Of a DNA stretch of 64,000 nt, positions 1 to 15,538 are shown in pieces. Made by a program: the position numbers and the translations under genes. How positions within the stretch are numbered: the stretch's first letter is position 1; each line of letters starts with the position of its first letter. This DNA comes from Deltaproteobacteria bacterium (GTDB lineage: Bacteria > Desulfobacterota > Dissulfuribacteria > Dissulfuribacterales > UBA5754). The notes beneath the pieces were generated by a model. It worked only from the letters and a program-made list of their open reading frames with translations. It did not search any database and had not been told where the DNA came from. Location: positions 64,652 to 128,651 of the forward strand of contig JAINCN010000021.1 of the NCBI GenBank assembly GCA_036574075.1, in the 5' to 3' direction.

Positions 1-120
1 CATATCCGCAAGGGTCACTCCCTCGACCTCGCCGCAGAAACCCCTCGGGTTTCCCTTAGGAAACGGGAAATCCCCGCATCCCTTTGGAATATCCAGAGTC
101 ACCCTCGAGGCAGCGTTCAT
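1..120 (-). CDS. hypothetical protein, 5' end only (continues off the left edge)
   Basis: The ATG at 120-118 overlaps the TGA stop of the upstream CheB-like gene (ATGA at 117-120). The frame MNAASRVTLDIPKGCGDFPFPKGNPRGFCGEVEGVTLADM stays open to position 1. No motif recognised. Confidence 0.3.
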   Translation of the reverse strand, partial: MNAASRVTLDIPKGCGDFPFPKGNPRGFCGEVEGVTLADM

Positions 121-1244
121 GGCCTGCTCCACTCCTGGATGACCGCTACGAGTTCGGGCAGGAGCCCAGAGCGGGCCTCCACGGCATCCATGACGCTGCG
201 GACGAGGAAAGGAGAAAGGCAGGTATCGGGCCGCTGGACCCAGATCCTCCCCCCTATACGCTCGACTTCCCGGGCCCCGGAGACCCCCTCTTGCAAATCC
301 CCTGAAAGATAGATGGCCAACGTCCCTTCGCTGAAGTGTTCGCTTGCGGAAAAGAGAAGGAGATCCAGGGGGCCTTCGCGATCAGAGAGATTCGTGCGTC
401 TGGTCACCCGCAGGGTCAGTCTGTCCCCAATTTGCTCAAAGGAGGAAATTTCGTCAGCAGATACGAAATAGGCACATCCTCGCTGGATCACGTCCCGGTC
501 ACGGACTCTCCTGAGGGGAAAGGGGGTATATGTCTGGAGATATTCGATAAAAGAATCGAGATACTGGCTAGACATACCAGCTACGACGATGATTGGCTCG
601 CGGGGCGGTACGGTAAAGGCCGGGAAAAGGCCCAGAAGCGAGGCGTATCCGCCAGTGGATGTCCCAATGACGGACACCCCGGCGGGATATCCCGTTTTCC
701 CTGCTGCTTCGAAAGACGGCGACCTAACGGCCGACCTTCCGAGTCTAAGGTAACGTGCAGCCCCCATGCTCACACCTGCAGCCCTCTTCACCTTCATTCT
801 CAGGACAGTCTTCTGCGCTTCCAGGTCCTCGCCTGATTCCTGGGACGGCTTCTGGAAAAAATCAACCGCGCCATAACGCAGGGCGTCAAATGTGATCCGT
901 GCGCCTTCCGAGGTAAAGGCGCTCACCATGAGGGCAGGCAACGGAGAACGTATCATGATGTGCTTGAGGAGGGTGATGCCGCTCATGCCAGGCATATTTA
1001 CATCAAGCGTACACACATCGACGTCACACCGGGCAAGTCTATCCATGGCCGATTGGCCGCTCATGGCCGTTCCGACCACCTGGATCTCGTCGTCATCCGA
1101 AAAGATCCTCTCAAGTACCTTGCACATCAAGGGTGAGTCATCCACGATGAAGACCCGTGTCCTTTTCCCTTTCTCCGGCCGAACAGTCGCGTCTGCAGCG
1201 CACTCCATGCAAGTCCTCCTCATATGCCTTATGAGATATGGCAA
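117..1244 (-). CDS. CheB-like response regulator (REC plus methylesterase-like domain; triad His apparently absent)
   Basis: 375-aa ORF. N-terminal receiver: VFIVDDSPLMCKVLERIF...CTLDVNMPGMSG...KP. C-terminal domain has a GTSTGG nucleophile-type motif, as in CheB GASTGG. AGM occupies the position where CheB has QHM. Confidence 0.8.
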   Translation of the reverse strand: MPYLIRHMRRTCMECAADATVRPEKGKRTRVFIVDDSPLMCKVLERIFSDDDEIQVVGTAMSGQSAMDRLARCDVDVCTLDVNMPGMSGITLLKHIMIRSPLPALMVSAFTSEGARITFDALRYGAVDFFQKPSQESGEDLEAQKTVLRMKVKRAAGVSMGAARYLRLGRSAVRSPSFEAAGKTGYPAGVSVIGTSTGGYASLLGLFPAFTVPPREPIIVVAGMSSQYLDSFIEYLQTYTPFPLRRVRDRDVIQRGCAYFVSADEISSFEQIGDRLTLRVTRRTNLSDREGPLDLLLFSASEHFSEGTLAIYLSGDLQEGVSGAREVERIGGRIWVQRPDTCLSPFLVRSVMDAVEARSGLLPELVAVIQEWSRP

Positions 1245-2230
1245 GGTCCGTCAGACCCCAGGCCCGTCCTCCCACAGGCCGACAGATAAAGCCTGCGCCC
1301 AAAGGCGCCTATCCTTGCCGACACGTCCCTGTCCACGACAAAACGCCTTGCAAGGGGATCGAAGACGTTTCCATCCGCTCCCTCCACGCCGAGCCGGACG
1401 AACATAACGGGCGGATCCGGGCGACAGGAAAGATTCCGTGCGTACTCGATGAAATCAAAGAAGGTCTCTTTGAGACGGAAGCATCCCCCCCCATTCGCTT
1501 CTATTCCCCTAAAACGTGCCCATGGGGCGAGGTAGCAACCGGCCACGCAAATCTCGTCGATCTCTGTGCAACAATACACGGGCCATGCGAAAACATCCTT
1601 GAGTCCAGCCCCGTAGGACCTGACGAGTTCCGGCACCATGTCGAGATGGGCCAAAACCGCAAGGGGCAGGTTTACATCCAGCTGGGAAAGGATCCTCATG
1701 AACTCCGCAGCACCGCCCTTGCCAACCGCTATCACGACCACCCCTGCTGCATGGTGATCCCTCCATCCCCTATCGCCAGCATGGAGGTGCAATCGGGCGC
1801 GCCTGATCTGGGCCGGCTCCACACCGGCGGCGATTTTCACGATCCGGGCCAGGGACTCGGCCTGTTCGTGGATATCGAGGGAGATGGTCCCGGAGGGTTT
1901 TGGGAAAAAATCCACGGCCCCGAGCCTCAGGGCATCCAGGGTGATTGCGCTCCTGTGGGCAAGTCCGCTCACCATGACCACGGGTTTGGGATACCTCACC
2001 ATGATATGCTTCATGGCCGTGATCCCGTCCATGACGGGCATGTCCACGTCAAGGGTGATGACATCAGGGTCGAGAATGGCGACCGCCTCCAAGGCCTCGA
2101 GCCCGTGCCGTGCCACACCCGCAACCTCTATCTCATTATCTCTCGAAAGGATCTCCACGAGGGCGCGCCTCATGAAGGAGGTATCGTCCACAACAAGTAC
2201 ACGGATCTTGCGTGCTGGCGCCTCAGGCAT
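1229..2230 (-). CDS. CheB-like response regulator paralog with degenerate active site (nucleophile Ser replaced)
   Basis: 333-aa ORF. Receiver: RVLVVDDTSFMRRAL...ITLDVDMPVMDG...KP. The C-terminal domain aligns by eye to the CheB fold, but the nucleophile motif is IAVGKGG (no Ser). AHLD and GADG-like positions are retained. It overlaps the next gene by 16 nt. Confidence 0.75.
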   Translation of the reverse strand: MPEAPARKIRVLVVDDTSFMRRALVEILSRDNEIEVAGVARHGLEALEAVAILDPDVITLDVDMPVMDGITAMKHIMVRYPKPVVMVSGLAHRSAITLDALRLGAVDFFPKPSGTISLDIHEQAESLARIVKIAAGVEPAQIRRARLHLHAGDRGWRDHHAAGVVVIAVGKGGAAEFMRILSQLDVNLPLAVLAHLDMVPELVRSYGAGLKDVFAWPVYCCTEIDEICVAGCYLAPWARFRGIEANGGGCFRLKETFFDFIEYARNLSCRPDPPVMFVRLGVEGADGNVFDPLARRFVVDRDVSARIGAFGRRLYLSACGRTGLGSDGPCHIS

Positions 2231-3092
2231 TGAGCACCCCCGACCATTGCTCTATGAGAAGGTCCTTGTCCTGGCGGAGGCGAAGGGCGATCTTCTTTAC
2301 CGTCTCTGGAGCGAGCCCGAGGGATCTCGGAACGAGCACCTTGTCCACCTCGCCATTTATGGTCCAACCGATGCCGAGTTTCTGACACAGGACATCGGCG
2401 AGAAATACTACGCCTACGGCGACCTCGTGGCATCCTGCTCCCTGGGGTCTGTGGTGATAGCGAAGGACATTCGCGAAAAAATCGCTGAGCCCCCACGAGG
2501 CGGCGAGATAGGCCCCAAGCTCGCCGTGGGTGAGTCCGAAGCGTTCCTCGGCCTCGATGAGGGTGATGCCATCCCTCTCCCTGATAGCAAGGATTTCTCC
2601 CAGTTCGTCAGGGAAATACCGGCAGAGGAGAAATCTCCCCAGGTCGTGTATGAGCCCGGCGGTGAAGATTTCGTTAGCATCCACGCCGGGCATGTTTTCT
2701 GCGATCATCTTTGAGGCCTTCGCAACCCCGATGGAGTGGAGCCATAGATCCCGCACGGCGAATCCCTCCATGTCTGCATACCCGGAAAACGCGGATATCA
2801 AAGACAGTCCGATGACGAGGTTTCTGACCTCCTCGAGGCCAAGCACCACTACCGCACGGGCAACGCTGTTGATCCTGCCGGCACCACCGTAGTACGGGGA
2901 GTTCGCAAGGCGGAGGATCTTCATGGTAAGGACGGGATCCTGCGCGACGATCCGTTCAATGTCGAGGGCTGTAGTGCTCTCCATGTCGAGAACATCAAGG
3001 ACCTGGTGGAACGTATGGGGAATCGGAGGAAGATCTTCCCGCAGGTCGAGCCGCTCCGTGTAGGAAACCCCCATGGACATGGACGAGCCCAT
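2223..3092 (-). CDS. HDOD domain-containing signalling protein
   Basis: 289-aa ORF. Typical HDOD N-terminus LPPIPHTFHQVLDVLDMESTTALDIERIVAQDPVLTMKILRLANSPYYG...VARAVVVLGLEEVRNL and HD-like HDLG. Overlaps the downstream CheB-like gene by 8 nt. Confidence 0.8.
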   Translation of the reverse strand: MGSSMSMGVSYTERLDLREDLPPIPHTFHQVLDVLDMESTTALDIERIVAQDPVLTMKILRLANSPYYGGAGRINSVARAVVVLGLEEVRNLVIGLSLISAFSGYADMEGFAVRDLWLHSIGVAKASKMIAENMPGVDANEIFTAGLIHDLGRFLLCRYFPDELGEILAIRERDGITLIEAEERFGLTHGELGAYLAASWGLSDFFANVLRYHHRPQGAGCHEVAVGVVFLADVLCQKLGIGWTINGEVDKVLVPRSLGLAPETVKKIALRLRQDKDLLIEQWSGVLNA

Positions 3093-3492
3093 CCCTTCTC
3101 ATGGATTTACCACTATTATCGACAGGGACGCGCCAGGACTTGAGAAGGGAGCGGATCGTGGCGGCCCTGCGCAAAAACCTGGTCGTTTCGGCCCCAAAAA
3201 ACGGGCAGGACTGATCACACTGCAAAAACCTCGAAATCTGATCCCACTCAAAAAGCCCTAGATGCAAGGCGCGAAATTTTCCAGGAATGAGGAGGGCGAA
3301 TCACGATTCGCCCCTACAGCGTACGCCGCATGGGCTGGAAAATTGAAGCAACGCCGCGAGAATCGGGTTTTTGAGCGGGATCAGGACTTAATCTTCCCCG
3401 CTTGGCTGTTCGATAAGAAAAATAACCCGCACCAGGGACCGGCATCACACGGGCCAACTCCACTCGAGAGGATCCATCCAAGGCAGGAACAA

Positions 3493-3897
3493 ATGAGCGA
3501 TTTTGTCCTTACCATACCTGTTCTCGAAAAGACCCGACGCGAGATCGAGAGCCACCTCATCGACGCAGGGGCACACACGGTCCTCATCGTAGACCAGGCA
3601 GGCAATATCATCACAAGCTGCGGCAAGACCAACAACAGCATCCAGGACTTCACATCCCTTGCCGCACTCACAGCGGCAAACTTTGCCGCGACCTCCCAGA
3701 TCGCCAGGCTCATCGGGGAGGACGACTTTTCCCTCCTTTTTCACAAGGGGAAAAAGGACAGCATCCATTTCACCCGACTCGGAGACGACTTCATCCTCGT
3801 CACTATCTTCGGGGATGACGTCTCCCTCGGCATCATTCGGCTCAAGATCTCTGAACTCATACATAGACTGTCTTCCATCCTCGGGATCAGCGTCTGA
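3493..3897 (+). CDS. mglB: Roadblock/LC7 family protein, MglB-like (putative GAP of MglA)
   Basis: Internal ATG at 3493 of the 3262-3897 ORF. Sequence MSDFVLTIPVLEKTRREIESHLIDAGAHTVLIVDQAGNIITSCG...FTSLAALTAANFAATSQIARLIG is Roadblock/LC7-like. The stop is 2 nt before the mglA start, matching the mglB-mglA order in Myxococcus. Confidence 0.8.
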   Translation: MSDFVLTIPVLEKTRREIESHLIDAGAHTVLIVDQAGNIITSCGKTNNSIQDFTSLAALTAANFAATSQIARLIGEDDFSLLFHKGKKDSIHFTRLGDDFILVTIFGDDVSLGIIRLKISELIHRLSSILGISV

Positions 3898-3899
3898 CC

Positions 3900-4523
3900 A
3901 TGGCCCTTATCGATCTGAGCAAGAAGGAAGTCCACTGCAAGATCGTCTACTACGGCCCGGGACGATGCGGGAAGACGACCAACCTCATCTATATCTATAA
4001 CGCTATGAGCGAAAAGACCCGGGGAAAGATGCTCACTATCGAGACAAAGGGAGACCGGACCCTGTTTTTCGATCTCCTGCCCATCAAACTCGGAAAGGTG
4101 GCAGGCTTTGACATCCGCATACAGCTCTACACTGTCCCGGGCCAGAGCATCTACGAGGCAACGCGAAAACTCGTCCTAAAGGGTGTGGACGGGATAGTTT
4201 TCGTGGCCGATTCCCTCAAAATCAGACAGCGCAAAAACATCGACAGCCTCCTCGAACTCACTCAGAACCTGAAGGAACTAAACCGCACCCCCTCCGAGAT
4301 TCCCCTTGTGCTCCAATACAACAAACGTGATCTCGTCACCTCGCCCATACCGACCCTCAGCATCGAGGAACTCGAGCGTGACCTCAACAACGGGCGGCGC
4401 CTCCCCTTTTTTGAGGCGGCGGCGATCAAGGGTATAGGGGTCTTTGAGACACTAAAGGAAATCAGCAAACAGACGGTCAGGCACGTGGCGAACAAGCATC
4501 TCTTCACCAAACCGTCTGGATGA
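3900..4523 (+). CDS. mglA: Ras-like small GTPase MglA
   Basis: 207-aa ORF. P-loop KIVYYGPGRCGKTTNL, MglA-specific switch II LYTVPGQ (instead of DxxGQ), NKRD guanine-specificity motif, LKGVDGIVFVADS. Close by eye to M. xanthus MglA. Confidence 0.92.
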   Translation: MALIDLSKKEVHCKIVYYGPGRCGKTTNLIYIYNAMSEKTRGKMLTIETKGDRTLFFDLLPIKLGKVAGFDIRIQLYTVPGQSIYEATRKLVLKGVDGIVFVADSLKIRQRKNIDSLLELTQNLKELNRTPSEIPLVLQYNKRDLVTSPIPTLSIEELERDLNNGRRLPFFEAAAIKGIGVFETLKEISKQTVRHVANKHLFTKPSG

Positions 4524-4565
4524 CTAATGCCACGCCAAAGGGGATTACGCCCTGAAGGAGTTTCC

Positions 4566-6236
4566 ATGAACGATAACACACCCATCCGTGACCAGGACGA
4601 TTTTCTAAATGAAATCGATGGATCGATCGACGCCCTTTTCGTTCCGACTCGACATATCGAGATCGATGCCCTGACAAACGAGATAAGAGAAAAGACGCCA
4701 CCGAACGATCCCTCCTCCGATGCATCCCCATCCCATCTGGAGGCCCATTCACCTGAAAACAGGGCTTCAGATACCCCCCTGACCCTCGAGCTGGAACCGG
4801 AGCCGGCATCCACGCCTGAGCAAGGCCCAAAGGAAGTCCCTTACGGAGACAACGGCCCAGCCCAAGAGGTGACTTCTTCGCTCAGCTCCCTTGACAGGCT
4901 CCGCCAAGGCATCCTTTCCATCGATTGGGAGATCTCGGACACCACTCTCAAGGAGGTGGAGCAATCCCTCGAGGCGATCGGCTCCAACGGGGCCTTTGCC
5001 GATTCAGCTGGGGCCCTTGGCATCATCGCCCTTCTCAAGGGTATATCCATGCAGCTCCGGAAGGATGTGTCCTCCCCCTCGACCCATATCGTTCGCGCCC
5101 TTCAGAAAGGGCTTACCGGGCTCGTCTCCATTGCAGAAGGACCGCCTGAAGACAGGGAAAAACGGATAGCCGCTCTCAGGGAAGAGCTCGAAAAGGTCAT
5201 GTTTCCCGCATCCGGCTTGGATATCGCCGAATCCGGCAGTACCCCCCAGGCCCCAGAACTGCAAAAAACCACTCCGCCACAGGGCGTTGACGCCATCTCG
5301 CTTGACATCGAACTGGAAGACGCCATCGATAAGGCCATACAGCCAAAAGCCGACACAAAGCCGATTATCGAGGCCCCTTTGCACCCCGTATCATCTGGCC
5401 CGCTGACTCAGGGTCTCTCCGCCTGCGTCCCCCCCCCACTCCTTACGCCGACCGAAACCATAGCCCATCCAGAGGGTGTCCTCGAGGCGGCCATCCTGGA
5501 ACACATCTCCCGCCTTAATAGGTGGATCGAGGGCATCCAGCCTATAGAAAGGCTTTTCTCCTCGACACGGGGCATGGAAAAGCTCAGCGCCTTCCATGCT
5601 AGGCTCATAGGAGACATGAGGCGCGAACGGGATCGCCTCGCTGGCATACTCGAAGGGAAAACTTATCAGGCGCCTGAACCCTCCTCCGCAGCACCTTCGC
5701 ATCCATCCGCCCCTGCAGCTCCTGTCAAATCGACGCAACCTGCCTCCCCATCCCCCTTGCCATGGAAAAATCTATGCGTCGTTTCCGGAAAAGAGGGCCT
5801 TATCGCACTGGTCCCTGAGGAAATCGCCTTTTCCGGCCCAAGCCCGTGGTGGGTCAGGCGCAAGGCATTTAAAGCCCGGAGCTTCCCCCTGAGGATGCTC
5901 AAACCCTGGCCATGGTCCCGCCTGAACACGCTTTTTACCGGAGAACTCGGAGAACTCGACGCCTCCGCCCTCTCATCAGCCGAGTTTCCCGTCCATCCGC
6001 TCACGCTCTCAGGAGAAAATGGCCCTGCGATTCCTCGGCGGCCCCACATCCTTGTCCTTTACGCACAAGGACGCGGATTGATCCTCTTTCTTGCAGTAGG
6101 CCCGAGGCCTTTTGCCCTCACGTCCGAATGGAGCTGGAATCCAGGCGATTCGTCCGAATCCGGCCCCATTGCCGGAGAACTCAGGCGCGGGGGGGAAGCC
6201 ATTCCTGTTCTGTCCGTCCGGAAAATCCTTACATAG
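4566..6236 (+). CDS. hypothetical Pro/Ser/Glu-rich protein with possible C-terminal CheW-like domain
   Basis: Strong SD GAAGGAG (4554-4560) lies 5 nt before the ATG at 4566; the ORF track starts at 4527. The long acidic/proline-rich linkers have no recognisable family. The last ~150 aa (LCVVSGKEGLIALVPEEIAF...PHILVLYAQGRGLILFLAVGP...IAGELRRGGEAIPVLSVRKIL) resemble the CheW beta-barrel pattern. Confidence 0.6.
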   Translation: MNDNTPIRDQDDFLNEIDGSIDALFVPTRHIEIDALTNEIREKTPPNDPSSDASPSHLEAHSPENRASDTPLTLELEPEPASTPEQGPKEVPYGDNGPAQEVTSSLSSLDRLRQGILSIDWEISDTTLKEVEQSLEAIGSNGAFADSAGALGIIALLKGISMQLRKDVSSPSTHIVRALQKGLTGLVSIAEGPPEDREKRIAALREELEKVMFPASGLDIAESGSTPQAPELQKTTPPQGVDAISLDIELEDAIDKAIQPKADTKPIIEAPLHPVSSGPLTQGLSACVPPPLLTPTETIAHPEGVLEAAILEHISRLNRWIEGIQPIERLFSSTRGMEKLSAFHARLIGDMRRERDRLAGILEGKTYQAPEPSSAAPSHPSAPAAPVKSTQPASPSPLPWKNLCVVSGKEGLIALVPEEIAFSGPSPWWVRRKAFKARSFPLRMLKPWPWSRLNTLFTGELGELDASALSSAEFPVHPLTLSGENGPAIPRRPHILVLYAQGRGLILFLAVGPRPFALTSEWSWNPGDSSESGPIAGELRRGGEAIPVLSVRKILT

Positions 6237-6254
6237 CCTGCTGGTATCATTGCC

Positions 6255-8570
6255 ATGAATCCTGAATCCATTAAAGCCCTTTTGTACGAGGCGGATCTTT
6301 ACGCCAGCCAAGGCCTCATCTCCGAGGCCCGTCAACTCTATGAAGAACTCCTCGCAAAGGCCGTAAACTATCCACCTCCCCTTGCCACGACCATCAAACA
6401 GAGGCTGGAGGCCCTCACAGGCACACGGACGCAGGCCGTTTCTGCCAACGGCCGCAATCGTCCCGCCCACGATGAAACGGATCGCCATCTCCAGAATGCC
6501 ATCGGCCTCATGGAAGCCGGCTTCCACCGAGAGGCCGTGAGCGAACTCAAGCTCATCCTCGACAAGGGTTATCCCAATGGGGAAATCCATCTCATGATCG
6601 CCGAGGCATATCTCGCCTCCAATCTTCCTTTCGATGCGGTGGATCACTTAGGAGAGGCACTGAAGGACACAAAACTCTCCCCAGAAAAACGCATGGAATG
6701 CCTCTACCGTGCCGCCATCATCCATGAGCAGCTCGGTATGATACCCCAGGCCATAGAAAAATTGAGGCAGATCGTGAGGATCGACCCCGGCTACAGAAAT
6801 TGCCGGGAGCGGCTGGACGGACTGACGCAAAGCGCCCAGAAATTCGGCCAGTACTATCCCCTGATCGCCAAAAATCTCCTGCAGGAAAGCCAGCTCGAGG
6901 AGGCGCGAAGCGCCGCTCGGGCAGGGGGAAAAACCATCGAATCCATCCTTATGACGAGATTTTCTATCGAAAAGGAGGAAATCGGCCGGGCGCTCAGCGA
7001 ATATTACCGCGTACCTTTTATCGAGTTTAACGAGCTCGAGGTGGGAACGGCGCCCGCCTGCATCAAGGGGGTCAAGGAACACTTCTTCCGGGCCAACACC
7101 TGTGTCCCTATCAAGGAAGAACGGGATGTCCTGCTCGTGGCACTCGACAACCCGAACGACCTCGTCAAGATCGACAACATAAAGCGCGTCCTCAAGGCCT
7201 CCCAGTTCGAATTCGCTGTGGCCCTAAAGGAAGACATCGACAAGTTCATCGACTTTTATTTCGGAAAGCTCAGCCTGGGTGGGAAGCAAGGAAACGTCTT
7301 CGATCAGCTGGAGATTTCCGAAGGGGAGGAGGTGGAGACGGATGATGAGGCATCCGACGCATCTGAAGCCGACAGCGTGGTTGTCCAGATGGCGAACACT
7401 ATCATCGAGGACGCCTTTGCAAAAAACGCCTCAGATATCCACATCGAGTCCCTAACCGGGAGGCGGGGGGCTGGAATCCGTCTGAGGATAGACGGCGACT
7501 GCATCCATTACCAGAACGTCCCCTATGAATACAAGCATGCCCTCATCTCCCGCATCAAGATCATGTCATCCCTTGACATCGCGGAAAAGAGGCTCCCTCA
7601 GGACGGAAAGATCAAATTCAAGACGCGACAGGGAAAGACCATCGAACTCCGGGTGGCGACCCTTCCCACCATAGAAGGCAACGAGGACGTGGTCCTTCGT
7701 ATCCTATCGGCATCTGAGGCTATGCCCCTCGACAAGATCGGCCTCATGCCGGATAACCTGGCGGCACTAAAGGATATCCTTGCCATGCCGTACGGCCTCA
7801 TCCTCGTAGTCGGCCCCACGGGTTCTGGAAAGACCACCACACTTCATGCCGCCCTCGGCCACATCAACCGCCCTGAAAAGAAGATCTGGACCGCAGAGGA
7901 TCCCGTGGAAATCGTCCAGGAAGGGCTCCGCCAGGTCCAGGTGAAGCCGGCTATAGGGCTAACATTCGCCCGGGTCCTTAGGGCATTTCTCAGGGCCGAC
8001 CCCGACGTCATCATGGTGGGTGAGACCCGGGATGAAGAAACGGCTACTACCGTTATCGAGGCCTCTCTCACCGGACACCTGGTCTTTTCCACACTCCACA
8101 CGAACTCAGCACCCGAGACGGTCACCCGGCTCCTCGGGATGGGCATGGACCCCTTCAACTTCTCGGACGCACTCCTCGGGATCCTTGCCCAGCGACTTGT
8201 AAAACGCCTCTGCACCAAGTGCAAGGAACCCTACACACCGGACAAGGACGAGATCCAACGACTCATAACGGAATACGGCTCGCACCCATCGAGGCCCCTC
8301 GATCCATCCCGATTCGCATCGGCGACTCTCTACCGGGCGAAGGGCTGCCCATTCTGTAACAACACAGGCTACAAGGGGCGCCTTGCCATCCACGAACTCC
8401 TCATTTCGAACGACGAGTTGAAGAGGCTCATTCAGGAAAAGAGACCGGTCTACGAGATCGCGGATGCCGCCCTGAGGGCGGGCATGCTCACCTTGAAGCA
8501 GGACGGCATCCTGAAGATCCTTTCCGGCGACACCGATATCAAACAGGTCCGCTCGGCATGCATCAAGTAG
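6255..8570 (+). CDS. GspE/PilB-family type IV pilus / T2SS assembly ATPase with N-terminal TPR extension
   Basis: 771-aa ORF. About 200 aa of N-terminal TPR-like repeats (LYASQGLISEARQLYEELL, MEAGFHREAVSELKLIL, GMIPQAIEKLRQIVRIDP). Then a GspE_N-like region, Walker A GPTGSGKTTTL, Asp/His boxes, and a tetracysteine motif CTKCKEPY...CPFCNNTGYKGR. Confidence 0.9.
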   Translation: MNPESIKALLYEADLYASQGLISEARQLYEELLAKAVNYPPPLATTIKQRLEALTGTRTQAVSANGRNRPAHDETDRHLQNAIGLMEAGFHREAVSELKLILDKGYPNGEIHLMIAEAYLASNLPFDAVDHLGEALKDTKLSPEKRMECLYRAAIIHEQLGMIPQAIEKLRQIVRIDPGYRNCRERLDGLTQSAQKFGQYYPLIAKNLLQESQLEEARSAARAGGKTIESILMTRFSIEKEEIGRALSEYYRVPFIEFNELEVGTAPACIKGVKEHFFRANTCVPIKEERDVLLVALDNPNDLVKIDNIKRVLKASQFEFAVALKEDIDKFIDFYFGKLSLGGKQGNVFDQLEISEGEEVETDDEASDASEADSVVVQMANTIIEDAFAKNASDIHIESLTGRRGAGIRLRIDGDCIHYQNVPYEYKHALISRIKIMSSLDIAEKRLPQDGKIKFKTRQGKTIELRVATLPTIEGNEDVVLRILSASEAMPLDKIGLMPDNLAALKDILAMPYGLILVVGPTGSGKTTTLHAALGHINRPEKKIWTAEDPVEIVQEGLRQVQVKPAIGLTFARVLRAFLRADPDVIMVGETRDEETATTVIEASLTGHLVFSTLHTNSAPETVTRLLGMGMDPFNFSDALLGILAQRLVKRLCTKCKEPYTPDKDEIQRLITEYGSHPSRPLDPSRFASATLYRAKGCPFCNNTGYKGRLAIHELLISNDELKRLIQEKRPVYEIADAALRAGMLTLKQDGILKILSGDTDIKQVRSACIK

Positions 8571-8611: not shown

Positions 8612-8643
8612 CAGGGCGGCGCATGGAGAATTGCACCGCCCTG
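8612..8643. terminator. hairpin between convergent genes (possible bidirectional terminator)
   Basis: CAGGGCGGCGCA (8612-8623) pairs with TGCACCGCCCTG (8632-8643): a 12-bp stem with 1 mismatch and an 8-nt loop. It lies between the ATPase stop (8570) and the pilin stop (8699). No clear U-tract. Confidence 0.4.
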
Positions 8644-8698: not shown

Positions 8699-9289
8699 TC
8701 AGAATCGTATGTATAAGCTAGCGATGTTTCCGGAAGCCGGTGCGTAGGCAGCAGTTGCCACCACGGAACCCGTGTCATAGACGGCGTCATCGAGCTTGGT
8801 GTCTATCTCGAGGGCTACATCCCAAGGCAGGTTATCCAGTCTGAACCAGTGGTTCGGGGTGGCTGCAGCCGGTGGGGGATCCGTCCAGTAAAGAACGATG
8901 ATGTCACCGAATGGGTGCCTGGGCAGGGTGTTTGGCGTTCTGTCGTAATTTCCGGAGATGATCTCGGCGAGCTGGAGGTCCCGGAAGAGCCACAGGTATT
9001 CGTTTCCGTTGATCTGACCGTCTCCGTTTCCGGCGTTGTCATCATTGGCCGGGATCGTGTTACCGGCCCCTCCCAGGGCCTCGTCTCCTGGGTATTGGCC
9101 GTACCTGTCATAAAAGGTGAGGACCGCTGCCCTTATGCCGTCCACCTGTGCAATGGTCTTTTTGACCTTGGCCTGCTGGATGAGGGCCTGCCCCTTCATG
9201 ACCGCCCCGAGTATGAGCCCGATAATCACAAGTACCATGGCCAACTCTACCAGCGTGAATCCCCTCTGCCCTTTCATGATGCGTTCCAT
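8699..9289 (-). CDS. prepilin-type N-terminal cleavage/methylation domain protein (candidate major pilin/pseudopilin)
   Basis: 196-aa ORF. Leader MERIMKGQRG followed by FTLVELAMVLVIIGLILGA (G-1/F+1/E+5 class III signal). SD AAGGAGG lies upstream. Confidence 0.85.
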   Translation of the reverse strand: MERIMKGQRGFTLVELAMVLVIIGLILGAVMKGQALIQQAKVKKTIAQVDGIRAAVLTFYDRYGQYPGDEALGGAGNTIPANDDNAGNGDGQINGNEYLWLFRDLQLAEIISGNYDRTPNTLPRHPFGDIIVLYWTDPPPAAATPNHWFRLDNLPWDVALEIDTKLDDAVYDTGSVVATAAYAPASGNIASLYIRF

Positions 9290-9354
9290 TTCCTTCGTAC
9301 CTCCTTTTTTTGATATTTGGATGGTTCGGATGCCATCCTGATATTCTTAGATAC

Positions 9355-10647
9355 TTATCGGTCTCGGACCCCTGTTGCTGTAAAACTCACTTGGCAGTCA
9401 CCATCTGCATCGGCCGATGCAGCCTGGCTGTAGGTTATTGTTGTCCGGGGTTGGAAGTTACAGGTTCCTAGTCTCGAGAATTGCTGGATGCTTCCCCCGC
9501 TGTTGAGACGCATCGAGTCGGTCGTGATCTCGCGGTTGTGACCGATATCATCCCTGCAGTGCCCATTATTGAACAGGAAGTCTGCCGTGAATCTCGTGAA
9601 GTTCCAGACCCTGATGCCCTGCGGGCACATCTGTGGCTGGCATGAGCCTGGATTTGAGCCTGCTGGATTGATGGTAATGACGAAATTCTTCGAGGCAATG
9701 TTGTCGTTTTCCCCGGATGGGTCGTTGTTGTCCCGGACGAAGATCCTCACAGGATATGTGCTCGATGTCCCCGCGGCAGGTGTGCCTTGGATGACGAGGC
9801 TTTTCGCCTGTCCCCAGGCGGCAGTGCCCTCGTCGGCGTGTGCGCAGTCCGAGCTCGTGGCGTTCGGGGTCAGGGAAAGTCCGTCGGGAACATCGCCCTG
9901 CACACTCCACTGCACACACCACTTGTACTCATTGCCGTCGGTGGTCTCGAACGGAACCCCTCCGTCGGCGATTACCTCTGCCATGTAGCTGTTTCCCTCG
10001 GAGCCGAACGGAAGTTCGTTGTTTACGATCCTAAGGGCCGGACCCACGCATCCCGCCTTGATCCTGAGTTCGTCGAGGGTGATCCAGGTAACGAGATCGT
10101 CGAAGGATTCGTTTCTTGACATATCGGCGGAATAGCCGTCAAGGTCAGGCGTCCCTGTGTCCCAGACCCTGATGCAGGTCTTTCCGGCGGGGCACCCCGC
10201 GAAGGCCCCTGTTCCCAACTGGATGTTCATGTTCTCGCCGCCGCTTGCAAGCACGAAGGCGGCGTTCTGGACGATGCGCGGGGTCGTGCATGCGGGGTCG
10301 GCCCCGCACTGGATGACCGACAACCCCGTGCTACTCCTCCCGCAGATATCAGGGGTGGTAAGGAGGCCGTCCGGGACGTAGAGAAGGTCCTTTTTCCATG
10401 AATCGCCCATGGTGCGGGCCACTGACGGGATCTCGGCCAAGGTGGGGATCTCCTTGTGTAGGGCGGCGTAGCTTACCACCCCTTCGGCAGCAGCGGCAAG
10501 GGTGTCTTTGGTCTCGTTCGTCTTTATCCGCTTGATCATGGGGCTGATCATGCCGGCACCAAGACCTGTCAGGATCCCGATGACAACAAGGATGATCGCC
10601 ATCTCGATAAGGGTGAACCCAGCATTTCGGGTGCGGTATGTTGGCAT
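9355..10647 (-). CDS. large pilin-like protein: prepilin N-terminus fused to Cys-rich and Ig-like (He_PIG-type) domains
   Basis: 430-aa ORF. MPTYRTRNAG/FTLIEMAIILVVIGILTG prepilin signal. Internal segment LRIVNNELPFGSEGNSYMAEVIADGG...DGLSLTPN...LVIQGTPAAGTSSTYPVRIFVRDNND matches the putative-Ig-domain pattern. About 14 Cys residues. Confidence 0.8.
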   Translation of the reverse strand: MPTYRTRNAGFTLIEMAIILVVIGILTGLGAGMISPMIKRIKTNETKDTLAAAAEGVVSYAALHKEIPTLAEIPSVARTMGDSWKKDLLYVPDGLLTTPDICGRSSTGLSVIQCGADPACTTPRIVQNAAFVLASGGENMNIQLGTGAFAGCPAGKTCIRVWDTGTPDLDGYSADMSRNESFDDLVTWITLDELRIKAGCVGPALRIVNNELPFGSEGNSYMAEVIADGGVPFETTDGNEYKWCVQWSVQGDVPDGLSLTPNATSSDCAHADEGTAAWGQAKSLVIQGTPAAGTSSTYPVRIFVRDNNDPSGENDNIASKNFVITINPAGSNPGSCQPQMCPQGIRVWNFTRFTADFLFNNGHCRDDIGHNREITTDSMRLNSGGSIQQFSRLGTCNFQPRTTITYSQAASADADGDCQVSFTATGVRDR

Positions 10648-10648
10648 T

Positions 10649-11461
10649 TCAGTGGCCCTCCCTTGTCATTGTTTTGGCAAGTTCCAGGTTGTACCTGATG
10701 TCTTCGTCGTCAGGGGCAATACTTATGGCCTCCTCGAGGATCTTCCTCGCCTCGTCTGGTCTTTTCAGCATGATCAAGGTGGCTGCAAGGTTGTTACCGA
10801 TCACCGGGTCTTTTTCCCGGCGCCATGCGGCCTGGTAAATCCGGCAGGCCTCTTCGATCCTACCCTGGCTGATCATAGCCTGCGCCTCCATGACGTCTGG
10901 GATGGGAGTCTCCTCTGCCTCGCTCATTTGGGCCTTCTTTTGGCTGGCAGGCGCCTGAAGAGCGGTCAGCTTGTCGGGGATGCGGATCTCCGCATCGGGC
11001 AAAGGCGCCTTGGCCGGCGGTTCATCGACTGCAGGAAGCAGTTTTGTCTCTCTGGAGTCCCGGGTTCCGATCCCGGATCCGGATTCGGACGGTATCGAGG
11101 GTTTCGGATCGTTGGATGCCGGCATGGATGATGCTGGAGGAGCATCCGCCAGTTGCTGCTGAACAGGGGGTGATGACGAGGGAGGCGATCCGGCATCGTT
11201 TCGGATGGCCCTGTCTGACGTCTCTGTTGTCTGTAGAGGCCGGAGGGTCTCACTGTTCATGCGTAGTTTCGAGGTGTCGATCCCCGAGACCGCCACTATG
11301 GCCAGGATCCCTGCCCCTGCAATGACGCCTACTGCGATAGACGAAAGGATCCAGGGGCCCTTCCATCGCCTTTTGGTCCTTTCCCTGAGGGCGAAGGGGG
11401 GCGGGTCTGCGCCGTGTTTCCTGGCCTCTATCCGGGAGATGGCATCAAACAGCCTGCTCAT
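10649..11461 (-). CDS. membrane-anchored TPR protein (MshN-like pilus biogenesis component)
   Basis: 270-aa ORF. One TM segment (WILSSIAVGVIAGAGILAIVAV), a Pro/Ser-rich linker and C-terminal TPR repeats (GRIEEACRIYQAAW..., DEARKILEEAISIAPDD). Positioned between the secretin and the pilins. Confidence 0.65.
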   Translation of the reverse strand: MSRLFDAISRIEARKHGADPPPFALRERTKRRWKGPWILSSIAVGVIAGAGILAIVAVSGIDTSKLRMNSETLRPLQTTETSDRAIRNDAGSPPSSSPPVQQQLADAPPASSMPASNDPKPSIPSESGSGIGTRDSRETKLLPAVDEPPAKAPLPDAEIRIPDKLTALQAPASQKKAQMSEAEETPIPDVMEAQAMISQGRIEEACRIYQAAWRREKDPVIGNNLAATLIMLKRPDEARKILEEAISIAPDDEDIRYNLELAKTMTREGH

Positions 11462-13121
11462 GGCCCATGACCTGTATCTGGAAAATGATCACCAGCTCGA
11501 CACGCTGGGAAGATTCCACATTGTGCCTGAAAGCAGGACCGATCACGGGAAGGGAGCCCAGGACCGGCACACCTACCCTGTTTTCCTTCTTTTTGTCCTG
11601 GATGAGGCCTCCGAGCATGAGTATCTCACCCGGCCTGGCCCGTACTACTGTAGATGCCTCTCTCAGGTTGACCCGAGGGAAGGTATAGCGATTTCCTCCG
11701 GTGAATTCGCGCTCCTCGAGGGAGATGAGGTCGCTCTTTATGGGCACGATATGGAGGTTCACGGTCCCGTCTGCCTCTATGATGGGGGTGATCCCAAGGA
11801 GCACGCCATCGAAGATGGAGCTTATCTCCACGTTTGTATCGGTGGTGGTAAGGTTGTCCCCGGATGTGGTCTCCTGCTCAAGGCTCCTTAGATACGAGAC
11901 CGACTGGCCCACGCTTATGACTGCTGACTGACCGTTCATGGCCTTCAGCCTGGGGTTTGAGAGGGTCTTGAGTGTCCCGTATTCCTCAAGGGCCTTGAAC
12001 ATGAGGCCGACGTCATAATAGCGCTGGGAGAGGTTCAGGCCGTACAGGAAGCCCGACTCCGTGATGTTGCTCGTCATGGTGAAGAGGGCCCCGGTATCCT
12101 TGAGCGCGTCCTTGCTGATGGTGAGTTCAAGCCTCCTCCAGTCGATGCCAAGTTCGTGTCCCTTGGAGAGCTCCACCTCAATGATCTTGGCCTCGATGAG
12201 GACCTGCCTTCTGTATTTTTCCCTCAGCGCATCGAGGTATGTGGCGATCTCCTCAAGGATCCGCGGCCGGGCCCTCACGAGAAGGGTGCCGGTCTGGCGG
12301 TTCAGGAAAAAGGTCCCTTCCTCCCCAAGCCTGGCCTTCACGGCGTTTTCTATCCCTGTGTATATATCGGTGACCGCGTCGGTCGTCTGTCCGGAAAGCT
12401 CGAAGTCTCCAGTGAGCGGGGTGAGGACGTTTTCGCTCCCTTCGCCGCCGCCCCCTCCACCACCGCCGCTGCTCCTGCCACCGCCTCCCCCGAGGACATC
12501 ACCGCCCACGGTGAACCGTGACTGAGGGACCGTGCCCAGGAATTCCAGGTGAAAGAGCCTCTGCGAGGTCCCGTGTATGTAAATGGTGCCCTCAGAATAG
12601 CTCCAGGAGATGTCCATGGCCTTTGTGACAGAGTCCAGGACCTCGCGCACAGGCCGTTCCTGGTAAACGGCAGTGAGGGTAGTCTTGTCACCGAGCATCT
12701 CGTCCACCTCCGGCCCGATCATGAGGTTTGCGCCTGCAGCATGCGCAAGGGCGTGGAGGATGTTCTTGTAGTTTTCATCGACGAAGGTTATAGAGACGAA
12801 CTTCGCGTCGAGGGGGGTTATGGTCTTGAATCGCGGCTGAGCAGAAGAGAGGTTTTTCTTGTGTTCAGGCCTGGTATCGGCAGGGAAAGGGGCATTGAAC
12901 CCCGATTGCGCTCCCAGGTCTTCAGGCATGGGACGCTCGCCCGTGCCGCCCTGCTGCCTGGCGCTGTCAGGGTGAGGCCCCAACCCGGCATTCATAGGTG
13001 CGCAGGCAGAAAACAGTGCCACAGAAAGGGCAAGCGCAATAAAGGGCAGTCCGCTTGTAAAGGTCTTTAAGGCAGACAGTTGCCTGGGCCGTCCGACTAT
13101 GACGTTTCGATGATGTCTCAT
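11445..13121 (-). CDS. secretin (MshL/PilQ/GspD family outer-membrane channel)
   Basis: 558-aa ORF. Secretin core QVLIEAKIIEVELS...NPRLKAMNGQSAVISVGQ...GEILMLGGLIQDKKKENRVGVPVLGSLPVIGPAFR...ELVIIFQIQV. Contains a Gly-rich insert GGGGGRSSGGGGGGGGEGSE. Confidence 0.9.
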   Translation of the reverse strand: MRHHRNVIVGRPRQLSALKTFTSGLPFIALALSVALFSACAPMNAGLGPHPDSARQQGGTGERPMPEDLGAQSGFNAPFPADTRPEHKKNLSSAQPRFKTITPLDAKFVSITFVDENYKNILHALAHAAGANLMIGPEVDEMLGDKTTLTAVYQERPVREVLDSVTKAMDISWSYSEGTIYIHGTSQRLFHLEFLGTVPQSRFTVGGDVLGGGGGRSSGGGGGGGGEGSENVLTPLTGDFELSGQTTDAVTDIYTGIENAVKARLGEEGTFFLNRQTGTLLVRARPRILEEIATYLDALREKYRRQVLIEAKIIEVELSKGHELGIDWRRLELTISKDALKDTGALFTMTSNITESGFLYGLNLSQRYYDVGLMFKALEEYGTLKTLSNPRLKAMNGQSAVISVGQSVSYLRSLEQETTSGDNLTTTDTNVEISSIFDGVLLGITPIIEADGTVNLHIVPIKSDLISLEEREFTGGNRYTFPRVNLREASTVVRARPGEILMLGGLIQDKKKENRVGVPVLGSLPVIGPAFRHNVESSQRVELVIIFQIQVMGHEQAV

Positions 13122-13582
13122 GGGATCCTCTCTCCCGATCTTATGAAGATCGACTGTTCCCCAGTGTCCACGGTCACCCCGTTTCCAGTGATGGATTTTA
13201 TCCTTAGCCCGGCGATCTCCTGGCCCTCATGCAAGATGTTTCCCTCGATGATGCAGAAACGGTCCGATCCGGTCACGGCCACGAGGCCAAGACTCAGGTC
13301 ATGCGCGACCCCTTCAGGTTCGGGTGGGGCGACAGGGATCGGCCTTTGATCCAGAAAGCCGAAGGGGTCGAGGGCGCCGATCCCTTCGATCTCCGTCTTT
13401 TCGGGAGACGCGGGCGCAAGCGCGGCAGGAAGTTGGGGCATGGCCTGGAATCCACGCGGGTGAGAACGGTAGGCCTGGGCGTTGAAGAGCATGACGAGAA
13501 GCGCGGTTGCCGCAGCAATGAATCCCGCCATAGGCAGGCAGACCGCAATCCATCTGACCGCCGGGTTCATGGAGCGAGACAC
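13118..13582 (-). CDS. pilus assembly protein, PilP/MshK/GspC-like (weak)
   Basis: 154-aa ORF with an N-terminal TM segment (WIAVCLPMAGFIAAATALLVMLF) and a C-terminal beta-rich segment RFCIIEGNILHEGQEIAGLRIKSITGNGVTVD. Call rests on position upstream of the secretin. 4-nt overlaps on both sides. Confidence 0.45.
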   Translation of the reverse strand: MSRSMNPAVRWIAVCLPMAGFIAAATALLVMLFNAQAYRSHPRGFQAMPQLPAALAPASPEKTEIEGIGALDPFGFLDQRPIPVAPPEPEGVAHDLSLGLVAVTGSDRFCIIEGNILHEGQEIAGLRIKSITGNGVTVDTGEQSIFIRSGERIP

Positions 13583-14037
13583 AGGAGATACCCCCGTATG
13601 CGGTATTCGAGGTGTCTGTCATCGTTCGTTTCGCCGGCCATGGCAGTTTTGATCCCGGCCTTTGCAGGTTCTTTTCTCGATGCGGAGAAGGAGACGGGGA
13701 CGAATACGCGGTCAGGGGCGCGCAAGGCGGAAAGACGGAGGACAAGCTCTGTAAAGGGCACATCCTGAAGGGTCATCTCCGTCTCCTGCCAAACTATAGC
13801 CGGGTTAGAGGTGAGATCCGGAAACGCGCCGCTGGTCCGTTCATCTCTGTTGGCCACATGGCGTTCGATTTCAGAGATGAGCTGTTCCTCCTTCAGGACG
13901 GCATCGAGGCCTGAGGCGAGTTCCTGTCTTTCCTTCCATGCAGCGACAAAAAACCAGATGGCGACGCAAAGGATCGACACCATTGCGGTCTGAAAAACAA
14001 TGGTTCTTGTCGGAGGGATGGGAGGGCCGTGGTTCAC
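13567..14037 (-). CDS. pilus assembly protein, PilO/MshJ-like (weak)
   Basis: 156-aa ORF with one TM segment (IVFQTAMVSILCVAIWFFVAAW) followed by a coiled-coil-like region. Operon position only. Confidence 0.45.
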   Translation of the reverse strand: MNHGPPIPPTRTIVFQTAMVSILCVAIWFFVAAWKERQELASGLDAVLKEEQLISEIERHVANRDERTSGAFPDLTSNPAIVWQETEMTLQDVPFTELVLRLSALRAPDRVFVPVSFSASRKEPAKAGIKTAMAGETNDDRHLEYRIRGYLLCLAP

Positions 14038-15503
14038 TGGTTCATCCTCATAGCGCCATTGCCGCGCGGAGAAATCGTGCAGGAGAGCACGCCCTCGGAC
14101 GTCTCTTCGGTGTAGCGTCTTTGGACGCGTTCGATGTCAAAGGCTGTCTGGAGGTTATGGATCGCGGCGTCCATCCGCTCGTTCGCCTCGCTAAAGGACG
14201 CAGAGGTGACGAGTTCGATTGCGATTTCCACGGGTTGGGCCAAGAGGGTGGCCGGGTCGCTGGAAACGAGATCCTGACCGGCGCTGTTCGCCATCCTAAG
14301 AGCCGGGGACGCGGCGGCCTTTGTCTCCCCGGATCCCTGGAGACCTTGGACAGCCCGGTTCAGGTCCATTTTTTTGATCTTCACCCCGTCAGGGAGCCTG
14401 TTTGCGAGGGTGACAAGGATCTCGTCCAGCCCGTGCTCGGCCCTGGCCCTGTTCCAGATGGCTGCAAGACGTTCGCGGGCCTCCCGTTCCGGTTGCGGCG
14501 GGAGTGTCTCCTCGATGAGCCGTCTTTTTGCCTCAACTTCCCGGGTACGATTGGCCAGATCGGCCTCAAGGGAAGAGTTCGTCCGCGCAAGGACAAGGGT
14601 GCCCGCAAGCAAAAGGGCGATTGCAGGAAGCGCGGCAAGGCTCGCCCATTTTGATACCTTCCCGATCGCGTAGGCCATCTTCCAGTCTTTAGGCACGAGA
14701 TCGTAGGCCGGGTCGGCGAACGCCACACCAAAGAGGTCAGGATGATCGTCCACCAGAGAAGGGTCCTGGACGTCCAGGATGGAATCCCACGCCGGTTGCA
14801 GGATATTCCGGCCGCCGAGCATGGCTGGGCACGAGCGCCGTTGCGGGCCGGTGGCGATGAAATGGCTGATATCGAGATCGTACTGCCTACGGGCCGTCTG
14901 GCTGACCATGTCGAAGGTCTGGGCCAGCATCGACTCCCGGAGGGATCCGTCCGTGTCAAGGGGGACAATCTGGGCGTGGAGAAGGACCGCGCCTGAAACA
15001 ACCATGATTTCAAGGAGTTCTTTATGGAAGATGGCAACGAGGACAGGTTCCTGGGTGAGGCGTCCCACGAGCCCGGCGATCGAGGCATGGCTGGGGATAA
15101 GGCCCGTGAGCCTCCATTCGCGCGCGCCGTGGCCGAGTTCCAAAATGGGTGCTACATCGCTTTCAGGCAGGGTGAGGACGGAGAGAATCTGATTTCCTGA
15201 GGCAGTGGTGCCGAGGGCCTTTATGCGATGGGCCACAGCCTGGCCTTCCGGCCACAGACCGCTCTGGCGGATCCGCTCAAGGACGCGGAGATTGAGGATT
15301 TCTTGTTTCGTTTTCGGGAACACTTCCCTGAAGATATGGATCTTCCTTGACGGGATGGTAACGGTCACTTCACCTGCGTTTACAGGCGCAGGGCCATGGA
15401 TCTCCTCGATCTGTCCGAAAGACGGCCTGTTAGGCGGTCCAGTGACGCGGACCCTGAGCCACGTCCCTCTTTCCTTTCCGGGTTTTGCGTAAAAACGGCC
15501 CAT
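14034..15503 (-). CDS. fused PilM-like / PilN-like pilus assembly protein (MshI-like)
   Basis: Start moved to the ATG at 15503 (MGRFYAKPGKE...) because the upstream part of the 15641 ORF lies inside the repeat element. About 330 aa cytoplasmic domain, a TM segment (WASLAALPAIALLLAGTLVLA), then coiled-coil and periplasmic domains. Confidence 0.55.
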   Translation of the reverse strand: MGRFYAKPGKERGTWLRVRVTGPPNRPSFGQIEEIHGPAPVNAGEVTVTIPSRKIHIFREVFPKTKQEILNLRVLERIRQSGLWPEGQAVAHRIKALGTTASGNQILSVLTLPESDVAPILELGHGAREWRLTGLIPSHASIAGLVGRLTQEPVLVAIFHKELLEIMVVSGAVLLHAQIVPLDTDGSLRESMLAQTFDMVSQTARRQYDLDISHFIATGPQRRSCPAMLGGRNILQPAWDSILDVQDPSLVDDHPDLFGVAFADPAYDLVPKDWKMAYAIGKVSKWASLAALPAIALLLAGTLVLARTNSSLEADLANRTREVEAKRRLIEETLPPQPEREARERLAAIWNRARAEHGLDEILVTLANRLPDGVKIKKMDLNRAVQGLQGSGETKAAASPALRMANSAGQDLVSSDPATLLAQPVEIAIELVTSASFSEANERMDAAIHNLQTAFDIERVQRRYTEETSEGVLSCTISPRGNGAMRMNQ

Positions 15504-15538
15504 TCTGGTTCTTTCGGCCTCAAGGCGTTTGCAAGAAG

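Follow-up and report, generated by a model that had tools for sequence, protein, structure and literature searches.

RESULTS

Layout of the cassette

The 64,000-nucleotide (nt) window analyzed here is part of contig JAINCN010000021.1, from a metagenome-assembled genome (MAG) deposited as "Deltaproteobacteria bacterium"; coordinates given below are positions in this window, and residue numbers follow the predicted proteins. At 3493-8570, four plus-strand open reading frames (ORFs) are packed with intergenic gaps of 2, 42, and 18 nt, encoding in order an MglB-like Roadblock/LC7 protein, the small GTPase MglA, a protein without annotation that we refer to as X, and a type IV pilus extension-type ATPase preceded by a tetratricopeptide repeat (TPR) domain, referred to as TPR-PilB (Table 1). 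An initial annotation of this DNA had proposed both the packing and the identities of all four genes; the former agrees with the ORF coordinates, and the latter hold in Pfam, NCBIfam, and PDB sequence comparisons. The start that gives mglB a length of 134 amino acids (aa) is the same as in the called genes of relatives, and the ATG of X at 4566 is preceded by a GAAGGAG ribosome-binding site. Public annotation of the cassette proteins is misleading: in NCBI, TPR-PilB (MEF3168311.1) is labeled "Flp pilus assembly complex ATPase component TadA," which is generic and wrong, MglA (MEF3168309.1) is a "GTPase domain-containing protein," and X is "hypothetical."

Table 1. Coordinates of the cassette genes, of the regions within their products, and of neighboring features
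Feature	Coordinates	Strand	Description
mglB	3493-3897	+	Roadblock/LC7 predicted GTPase-activating protein, 134 aa
mglA	3900-4523	+	Ras-like small GTPase, 207 aa
X	4566-6236	+	556 aa, family without annotation; kinase-less CheA-like scaffold by predicted fold
X, N-terminal motif	4593-4691	+	Residues 10-42, F..EI(D/E)..IDxLF.P...IEIDPLTNE
X, helical bundle	4875-5201	+	Residues 104-212, five predicted helices, Hpt/CheA-P1-like, pLDDT about 95
X, helical hairpin	5469-5651	+	Residues 302-362, two long antiparallel predicted helices, pLDDT about 94
X, CheW/CheA-P5-like domain	5748-6233	+	Residues 395-556, beta-rich by prediction, C-terminal
TPR-PilB	6255-8570	+	771 aa, type IV pilus extension-type ATPase with N-terminal TPR domain
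TPR-PilB, TPR array	6255-6824	+	Residues 1-190
TPR-PilB, degenerate MshE-type c-di-GMP motif region	6843-7004	+	Residues 197-250
Mini-X variants (other loci)	L021 376-912; L028 7348-7971; L052 1989-2405		138-207 aa, motif and hairpin only
HDOD gene	2223-3092	-	First gene of the Che-like operon; Pfam HDOD 4e-56
REC with degenerate CheB-like C-terminal domain	1229-2230	-	333 aa
REC-CheB-like	117-1208	-	363 aa, Response_reg and CheB_methylest match
PATAN-REC-CheB-like gene, 5' end	1-120	-	Runs off the window; cheY and cheA lie beyond
MSHA-type pilus cluster	8699-19465	-	Converges on the cassette, 128-nt gap
GspF/PilC (MshG/PilC-like) platform protein	16617-17819	-	In the MSHA-type cluster
MshE-type ATPase	17819-19465	-	548 aa, intact c-di-GMP-binding motif (58.9 bits)

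Conservation of the cassette

The cassette was compared with 54 related loci (labels with L and a number) from Desulfobacterota MAGs and metagenomes, reached by three independent routes, namely, X homologues, a scan of GTDB genomes with an X pattern (8 Desulfobacterota MAGs), and a metagenome scan with the TPR region only (41 loci); counts given below use the loci with enough flanking DNA. All 54 fetched loci contain the cassette, in the order mglB-mglA-X-tprPilB. X lies immediately upstream of TPR-PilB in 46 of 46 testable loci, MglA is present in 29 of 29, and MglB is encoded upstream of mglA in 28 of 29; among the fetched loci, neither X nor TPR-PilB was ever found without the other. The pairwise divergences of MglA, X, and TPR-PilB correlate with each other (r, 0.87 to 0.94), X being the fastest evolving of the three (median identity, 28%). 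The four genes are co-inherited as a unit, with intact catalytic motifs in both enzymes, and the linkage is kept in every relative sampled among these bacteria of the sulfate-reducer type, which excludes chance as the cause of the adjacency.

MglB and MglA

The product of mglB is a predicted GTPase-activating protein (GAP) of the Roadblock/LC7 type, matching Pfam Robl_LC7 with an E-value of 1.1e-12 (47.9 bits; cutoff, 23), and MglB of Myxococcus xanthus (6h5b) is its best PDB relative by sequence (phmmer, 5.9e-23). It stays below the NCBIfam equivalog NF052242, a model with a high cutoff (56.3 bits versus 200). The gene that follows 2 nt downstream encodes what its sequence marks as a bona fide MglA, which aligns one to one with M. 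xanthus MglA (6h17) over residues 1-194 at about 60% identity (1.9e-61) and matches Thermus MglA at 1.1e-54. The protein carries the P-loop GPGRCGKT, the switch II sequence TVPGQ (Thr replacing Asp, and the catalytic Gln), and NKRD, and its intrinsic arginine finger, DRTLFFD, aligns with the DRTLFFD of 6h17 (R53, switch I). The P-loop, (D/E)RTLFFD, TVPGQ, and NKxD are kept in 38 or 39 of the 39 cassette MglAs, the arginine finger in all 39.

The TPR-PilB ATPase

In TPR-PilB, Pfam places T2SSE at residues 371-765 (E-value, 1.2e-118) and MshEN at residues 251-337. The N-terminal TPR array of about 200 aa that had been read in the initial annotation is supported by four TPR families above their Pfam cutoffs, all within residues 2-180, namely, TPR_2 (30.9; cutoff, 27), TPR_19 (30.3; cutoff, 25), TPR_6 (28.9; cutoff, 26.3), and TPR_14 (28.7; cutoff, 23.5). 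The array is kept in 12 of 12 aligned relatives, with TPR_2 at 40 bits in L002. Since residues 197-766 align over the full length of the PilB proteins of M. xanthus (3jc8; 1.8e-117) and Geobacter, gene 4 encodes a PilB that is complete and is extended at its N terminus by a TPR domain of about 190 aa. In the PDB comparison, PilB proteins of type IVa pili (T4aP) from Myxococcus and Geobacter (396 bits) come ahead of GspE (341 bits). All 41 members of the ATPase family keep Walker A and Walker B; the Asp and His boxes and the tetracysteine motif are present in 40 of 41. We describe the protein as PilB-like, its sequence scores falling short of certifying a T4aP PilB orthologue.

Between the TPR array and MshEN lies a degenerate version of the motif by which MshE-type ATPases bind cyclic di-GMP (c-di-GMP). 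The NCBIfam model of this motif (NF053729; cutoff, 38 bits) gives 18.4 bits for TPR-PilB versus 58.9 bits for the 548-aa ATPase encoded nearby, and in an alignment read by eye other residues appear to occupy the canonical positions of Arg and Gly in the TPR-PilB family. Loss of the motif fits a switch of regulatory input.

Protein X

X has no Pfam or NCBIfam match, as expected from its earlier description as a family-less 556-aa protein, and none of 70 members of the X family compared with Pfam has a relevant domain. A word-indexed search with X returned four close relatives, and an exhaustive profile search of 1.84 billion (1.84e9) representative proteins gave 69 matches at E<1e-30, or 87 when the limit is relaxed to E<1e-10. 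X is a previously unrecognized protein family. Its AlphaFold2 (AF2) model, built on a 70-sequence alignment, has a mean predicted local distance difference test score (pLDDT) of 75; four regions of it are predicted with confidence, with acidic, Pro-rich stretches of disorder as linkers between them (Table 1). The first of these, the N-terminal motif, is the best-conserved part of the family. A second short acidic motif, L.LELE, is conserved at residues 72-77, inside the first disordered linker.

The predicted C-terminal domain, modeled on its own (residues 395-556), reached a pLDDT of 89.7 and a predicted TM-score (pTM) of 0.86. In a Foldseek comparison with the PDB, its top 18 matches are all CheW or CheA-P5 (best E-value, 3.7e-4; probability, 0.9 to 1.0; TM-scores, about 0.45 to 0.58), after which the probability falls to 0.1 or less. 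With the full-length model, CheW and CheA-P5 again rank first in the PDB, and CheA-P1/Hpt come first among the helical matches. The CheW profile (PF01584) matches neither the X sequence nor any of 70 sequences of its family, so the possible CheW-like domain of the initial annotation stands at the level of the predicted fold and not at that of sequence; nor is it the whole of X, which additionally has the Hpt-like bundle, the hairpin, and the N-terminal motif.

The best Foldseek matches of the helical bundle are led by P1 of Rhodobacter sphaeroides CheA3 (3kyj, with 3kyi) and include CheA P1 (1i5n, 2ld6, 2lp4, and 1tqg) and Hpt proteins (TMt, 0.6 to 0.69); W121-E122 is invariant in the bundle. 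The hairpin, with conserved E328, G336, K339, L340, and R348, is possibly a P3-like dimerization element, by analogy with CheA. With these regions, X looks like a kinase-less CheA-like scaffold, its model containing the components of a CheA minus P2 and P4; the assignments of bundle and hairpin are provisional.

We considered three other identities for X. A kinase or phosphotransfer protein was rejected, as no His is conserved at residues 100-215 in 70 sequences, H313 of the hairpin is present in only 51 of 70, and HATPase_c (P4) is found neither by Pfam nor in the model between the hairpin and the CheW-like domain. A RomX homologue was likewise rejected: RomX is a three-helix bundle, and no similarity to it appeared among the fold or sequence matches. 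SopA was also considered; it has no known fold, and no direct comparison was made.

A motif shared with CheA and a minimal form of the cassette

The N-terminal motif of X has a core, [DE][IL][DE]x[AST]IDxLF, that is also present in the linker ahead of P3 of the partner CheAs, which are encoded in the Che-like clusters described below. Among the six-frame ORFs of all loci (455,000 residues), the strict core is confined to 34 X proteins, two of the partner CheAs, and a single other ORF; the rest of the CheAs, with one additional unrelated ORF, come in when the pattern is loosened. As far as these sequences go, the motif is common to X and the partner CheA and specific to them. It may resemble the peptides of FliM and CheZ that bind phosphorylated CheY. 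The other ORF with the strict core (L030, 15298-16017, plus strand; DLDLAIDDLF) encodes 239 aa without a Pfam domain, about 5 kb downstream of the cassette.

In three loci, X is replaced by a mini-X (Table 1), and in two of these, L028 and L052, a minimal cassette consists of MglA, mini-X, and TPR-PilB; L028 has no mglB at all, a transketolase gene preceding mglA. MglA, TPR-PilB, and, from X, the motif and hairpin appear to make up the irreducible unit, and this minimal cassette points to direct interplay among the three proteins.

The divergent Che-like cluster

Upstream of the cassette, at the left edge of the window and on the opposite strand, lies a Che-like operon with a PATAN gene. The initial annotation missed it. 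Behind the HDOD gene, the 1229-2230 product matches Response_reg (8e-21) and, weakly, CheB_methylest (2.5e-4), with the CheB active-site Ser replaced (VGKGG); this gene is kept in the Che-like cluster of relatives. The 117-1208 product, whose gene length was taken from contig L055 of the same genome, keeps GTSTGG and reads AGMS at the position of the catalytic His and is, by these residues, probably a pseudo-esterase. On L055, the gene order is HDOD, REC, REC-CheB, PatA_N-REC-CheB (477 aa; 3170-4603), CheY (123 aa), CheA (913 aa, with Hpt, H-kinase_dim, HATPase_c, and CheW), and RlmN, and no gene for a methyl-accepting chemotaxis protein, CheW, or CheR is present in the operon there. A single operon contains three REC-CheB-like paralogues, and both of those read in the window have an altered catalytic residue; judging from these residues, the methylesterase fold seems to be reused as a noncatalytic module.

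The HDOD gene is divergent in 14 of the 22 loci with enough upstream DNA, and a fuller Che-like cluster adjoins the cassette in a dozen or so of these. In one lineage, the Che cluster is reduced to a divergent gene upstream of mglB encoding a CheA relic of approximately 270 aa, which corresponds to the N-terminal part only and has the phospho-His changed to Gln (NMQSIKG); it occurs in L007 (7880-8680), where it adjoins a MASE1/HD-GYP-like gene, and also in L015, L016, L023, L024, and L035. One divergent subclade has a fifth gene right after that of the ATPase (L050, 10539-11747; also L045, L047, L048, and L051), and the product of this gene has REC, PATAN (DUF4388), and a weak Roadblock/LC7 match. 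The PATAN-REC linkage recurs in two different gene arrangements. It matches the published observations that mglA and mglB are occasionally near PATAN genes (PMC4316618) and that, in Synechocystis, PilB1 is bound at its N-terminal domain by the PATAN domain, which sets the direction in which pili assemble (bioRxiv 10.1101/2021.06.11.447907).

The neighboring MSHA-type pilus cluster and the rest of the window

On its other side, the cassette is met by a convergent pilus machine with its own, different ATPase, just as had been annotated initially. In addition to the platform protein and the ATPase of Table 1, this MSHA-type cluster encodes two prepilin-like proteins, a TPR protein, an MshL-type secretin (247 bits; cutoff, 250), a T2SSB-like protein, two unknown proteins, and an ExeA/MshM-like AAA protein. 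Three ORFs within it, 13118-13582, 13567-14037, and 14034-15641, have no NCBIfam match, and the first has at most a below-threshold match to Pfam T2SSB. Where the ATPase and prepilin genes converge, the 128-nt stretch that separates them contains an inverted repeat, CAGGGCGG ... CCGCCCTG (8612-8643), with an 8-bp stem and a 16-nt loop; it lacks a T-run, and the terminator scan made no call there.

The cluster adjoins the cassette here and in an 89%-identical relative (L001) only. Pilus-machine genes downstream of the cassette were found in none of the 23 other loci that extend 3 kb or more in that direction; in a 78% relative, Usp and TauE genes follow the ATPase gene instead, and the genes conserved downstream in other lineages are housekeeping genes (LigT, CinA, PgpA, and LarC). 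The MSHA-type cluster is not a conserved part of the module, and the association is lineage specific. The candidacy of this cluster as the cognate machine of TPR-PilB was rejected on the same count of 0 of 23.

From 22 to 64 kb, the window contains housekeeping genes. A 441-aa ORF without a Pfam match (25903-27228, minus strand) lies between a PAS histidine kinase gene and Tol-Pal genes, and an Rfam scan of the window gave no match.

DISCUSSION

The conserved linkage of mglB, mglA, X, and tprPilB suggests that the module most likely serves as a spatial or temporal gate on a type IV pilus extension ATPase, a model to which we give somewhat better than even chances. Its steps would be as follows: (i) MglA would cycle between GTP and GDP, with MglB acting as the GAP that switches it off; (ii) MglA-GTP would engage the N-terminal TPR domain of the PilB-type ATPase and recruit or license the motor at one cell pole, so that a GTPase/TPR input would replace the input that MshE/PilB relatives take from c-di-GMP, a nucleotide second messenger; (iii) X would be a dimeric, catalytically inert, CheA-derived scaffold, and its N-terminal motif, common to it and the partner CheA, would dock on a shared partner, most plausibly the peptide-binding TPR domain or, alternatively, a receiver domain; (iv) the Hpt-like and CheW-like domains of X would connect to a Che-like phosphorelay made up of CheA, CheY, PATAN-REC-pseudoCheB, REC-pseudoCheB, REC, and HDOD, which, where present, would give the sensory input that switches the module; and (v) the PATAN-REC proteins would provide a second, phosphorylation-dependent input on the ATPase N terminus. 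The pilus machine served by TPR-PilB would be encoded elsewhere in most genomes. We infer all physical interactions among the cassette proteins. The Rosetta-stone reading, in which the TPR effector of MglA has become fused to PilB, is by analogy consistent with published work. A more far-reaching version, to which we incline only tentatively and which we hold to be somewhat more doubtful than probable, is that the cassette forms a self-contained polarity engine, in which X, as an ex-kinase chemosensory scaffold, and MglA/MglB would dock on the extension motor and switch it via the fused TPR domain.

Several observations weigh against gating of a pilus motor along these lines: (i) PilB TIGR02538 is the best-scoring NCBIfam family for the ATPase, at 509.1 bits, which is below the equivalog cutoff of 675.65; (ii) a single mglB-mglA-X-tprPilB transcript is inferred from gene spacing only, and no usable result came from scans for promoters (sigma-70 and sigma-54) or terminators; (iii) the CheA-likeness of X draws on predicted folds only, in that the Foldseek E-values behind the Hpt-like call for the bundle, 0.04 to 0.6, are weak and a helical bundle is a common fold, hhalign of the X family with the partner CheA gives a probability of 31% at full length and nothing significant domain by domain (weak for the bundle with P1, not significant for the C-terminal domain with P5), and the X profile finds only designed helical repeats among PDB sequences, none of them significant; (iv) about one-third of the loci have no adjoining Che cluster, and these, as well as the loci with a CheA relic, imply that chemosensory input is dispensable or encoded elsewhere.

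TPR domains typically bind short peptides, and the best-conserved part of X is a short motif. This opens another, less likely path, in which X rather than the TPR domain would be the direct partner of MglA, in a chain from MglA-GTP through X to TPR-PilB; X would then be the effector, a RomR/RomX-like adaptor, or a guanine nucleotide exchange factor, with its motif as the ligand of the TPR groove. The minimal cassette, which keeps MglA, the motif and hairpin of X, and TPR-PilB, would suit such a chain, as would the acidic, Pro-rich, disordered linkers of X. There is also a precedent in RomX, which is small and helical and links a REC domain to MglA-GTP (bioRxiv 10.1101/2024.02.20.581209). RomX, however, is a monomeric three-helix bundle, whereas the core of X is a two-helix hairpin, no similarity between the two was detected in fold and sequence searches, and the published MglA effectors are TPR proteins, as the model with direct engagement of the TPR domain by MglA-GTP would have it.

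A rather improbable alternative is that the ATPase powers secretion of the type II secretion system kind, DNA uptake, or conductive pili and that MglAB and X merely localize it. Such a role would be compatible with scores below both the PilB and the GspE equivalog cutoffs, with the lack of a linked pilT, pilC, or pilin gene in 23 loci, and with an NCBI label that is generic only and wrongly TadA. The nearest relatives in the structural database are nevertheless T4aP PilB proteins, matched over their full length at 396 versus 341 bits for GspE, and the known outputs of MglA and of PATAN proteins are type IV pili (PMC11580455; bioRxiv 10.1101/2021.06.11.447907).

We regard as quite unlikely the initial proposal of one pilus with two ATPases, in which TPR-PilB and the MshE-type ATPase would both drive the neighboring MSHA-type pilus, one with MglA and the other with c-di-GMP as its input. 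The two gene sets do converge in the window across 128 nt, the c-di-GMP motif is intact in the neighbor and degenerate in TPR-PilB, and the same adjacency exists in the 89% relative; against this, the adjacency is absent in 23 of 23 other loci, including the 78% relative with its Usp and TauE genes, and what other lineages conserve downstream is housekeeping. Lastly, a fortuitous adjacency of the four genes without a functional link is effectively refuted by the locus survey and has next to no probability left, given that the order is 100% conserved across lineages in which X is down to about 25% identity and that X and TPR-PilB always occur together in the fetched loci.

We found no description of a TPR-PilB fusion or of an mglBA-X-TPR-PilB cassette in the searchable literature, in agreement with the initial statement that no such operon is known to have been characterized. 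If the reading as a polarity engine is true, the fusion would be Rosetta-stone evidence that MglA-effector TPRs touch PilB directly, this contact would be the missing step of the Myxococcus pathway from SgmX to PilB, and X would represent a new class of CheA-derived adaptors that join two-component and small-GTPase signaling. A natural, widely conserved TPR-PilB fusion locked to mglBA offers a compact four-protein system for the SgmX-PilB question, and X suggests a route by which chemosensory scaffolds may be recruited into GTPase-based polarity control. Furthermore, the known genomic association of PATAN and MglAB is extended to a defined motor, and identification of the cassette corrects the database labels "hypothetical," "TadA," and "GTPase domain-containing."

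Among known systems, the closest analogue of X, judging from predicted folds, is the split CheA3 of R. sphaeroides, which likewise combines a P1-type bundle with P5, lacks P4, and stands beside a complete kinase CheA (PMC6829392, PMC2817712). CheA3 differs in having a phosphorylatable His in P1 and a phosphatase region, whereas X has no conserved His in its bundle and carries the hairpin and the N-terminal motif instead, with no detectable sequence similarity between X and CheA. The ATPase would share control at its N-terminal region with c-di-GMP-gated ATPases, such as Vibrio MshE and Clostridium PilB2, and with the FimX-PilB pair, but in TPR-PilB the motif is degenerate and a TPR domain is found instead. 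As with the cyanobacterial PatA-type regulators and PilB1, chemosensory-type PATAN-REC proteins are encoded here beside a PilB-type motor; unlike in cyanobacteria, PATAN-REC is fused to a CheB-like pseudo-esterase or, in L045-L051, to a Roadblock-like domain, and it is found together with MglAB, X, and an ATPase extended by TPRs.

The invasive-pole hub of MglA, Bd2492, and RomR in Bdellovibrio bacteriovorus resembles the cassette in pairing MglA with a TPR protein, Bd2492, which was pulled down with MglA, in a polar process dependent on type IV pili (PMC3983030, PMC7668184); there, MglB is absent, the TPR protein is separate from the ATPase, and the genes are not gathered in one operon. In M. 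xanthus, MglA-GTP recruits the TPR protein SgmX, which is needed for polar PilB by a mechanism that is not known (PMC11580455, PMC7519303, PMC7668184), and no direct contact between SgmX and PilB was detected (PMC11580455). That pathway has in common with the cassette MglA and a Roadblock GAP, a TPR module downstream of MglA, and PilB as the output (PMC11580455), and, besides FrzS and SopA, it also has a chemosensory link (Frz input), the action of Frz on MglA resembling the Che input proposed here. The differences are that SgmX is a separate protein with 14 TPRs, likened by domain type to the approximately 190-aa TPR domain fused to PilB here; that the M. xanthus genes are scattered (PMC4316618), whereas here they form one cassette; and that RomR/RomX, FrzS, and SopA are not linked here, with the extra protein X being obligatory. 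To conclude, the analogy suggests that the cassette would work like the MglA-SgmX-PilB pathway of Myxococcus, differing from it in the gathering of the genes in one operon, the fusion of the TPR domain to the motor, and the addition of an obligatory new scaffold.

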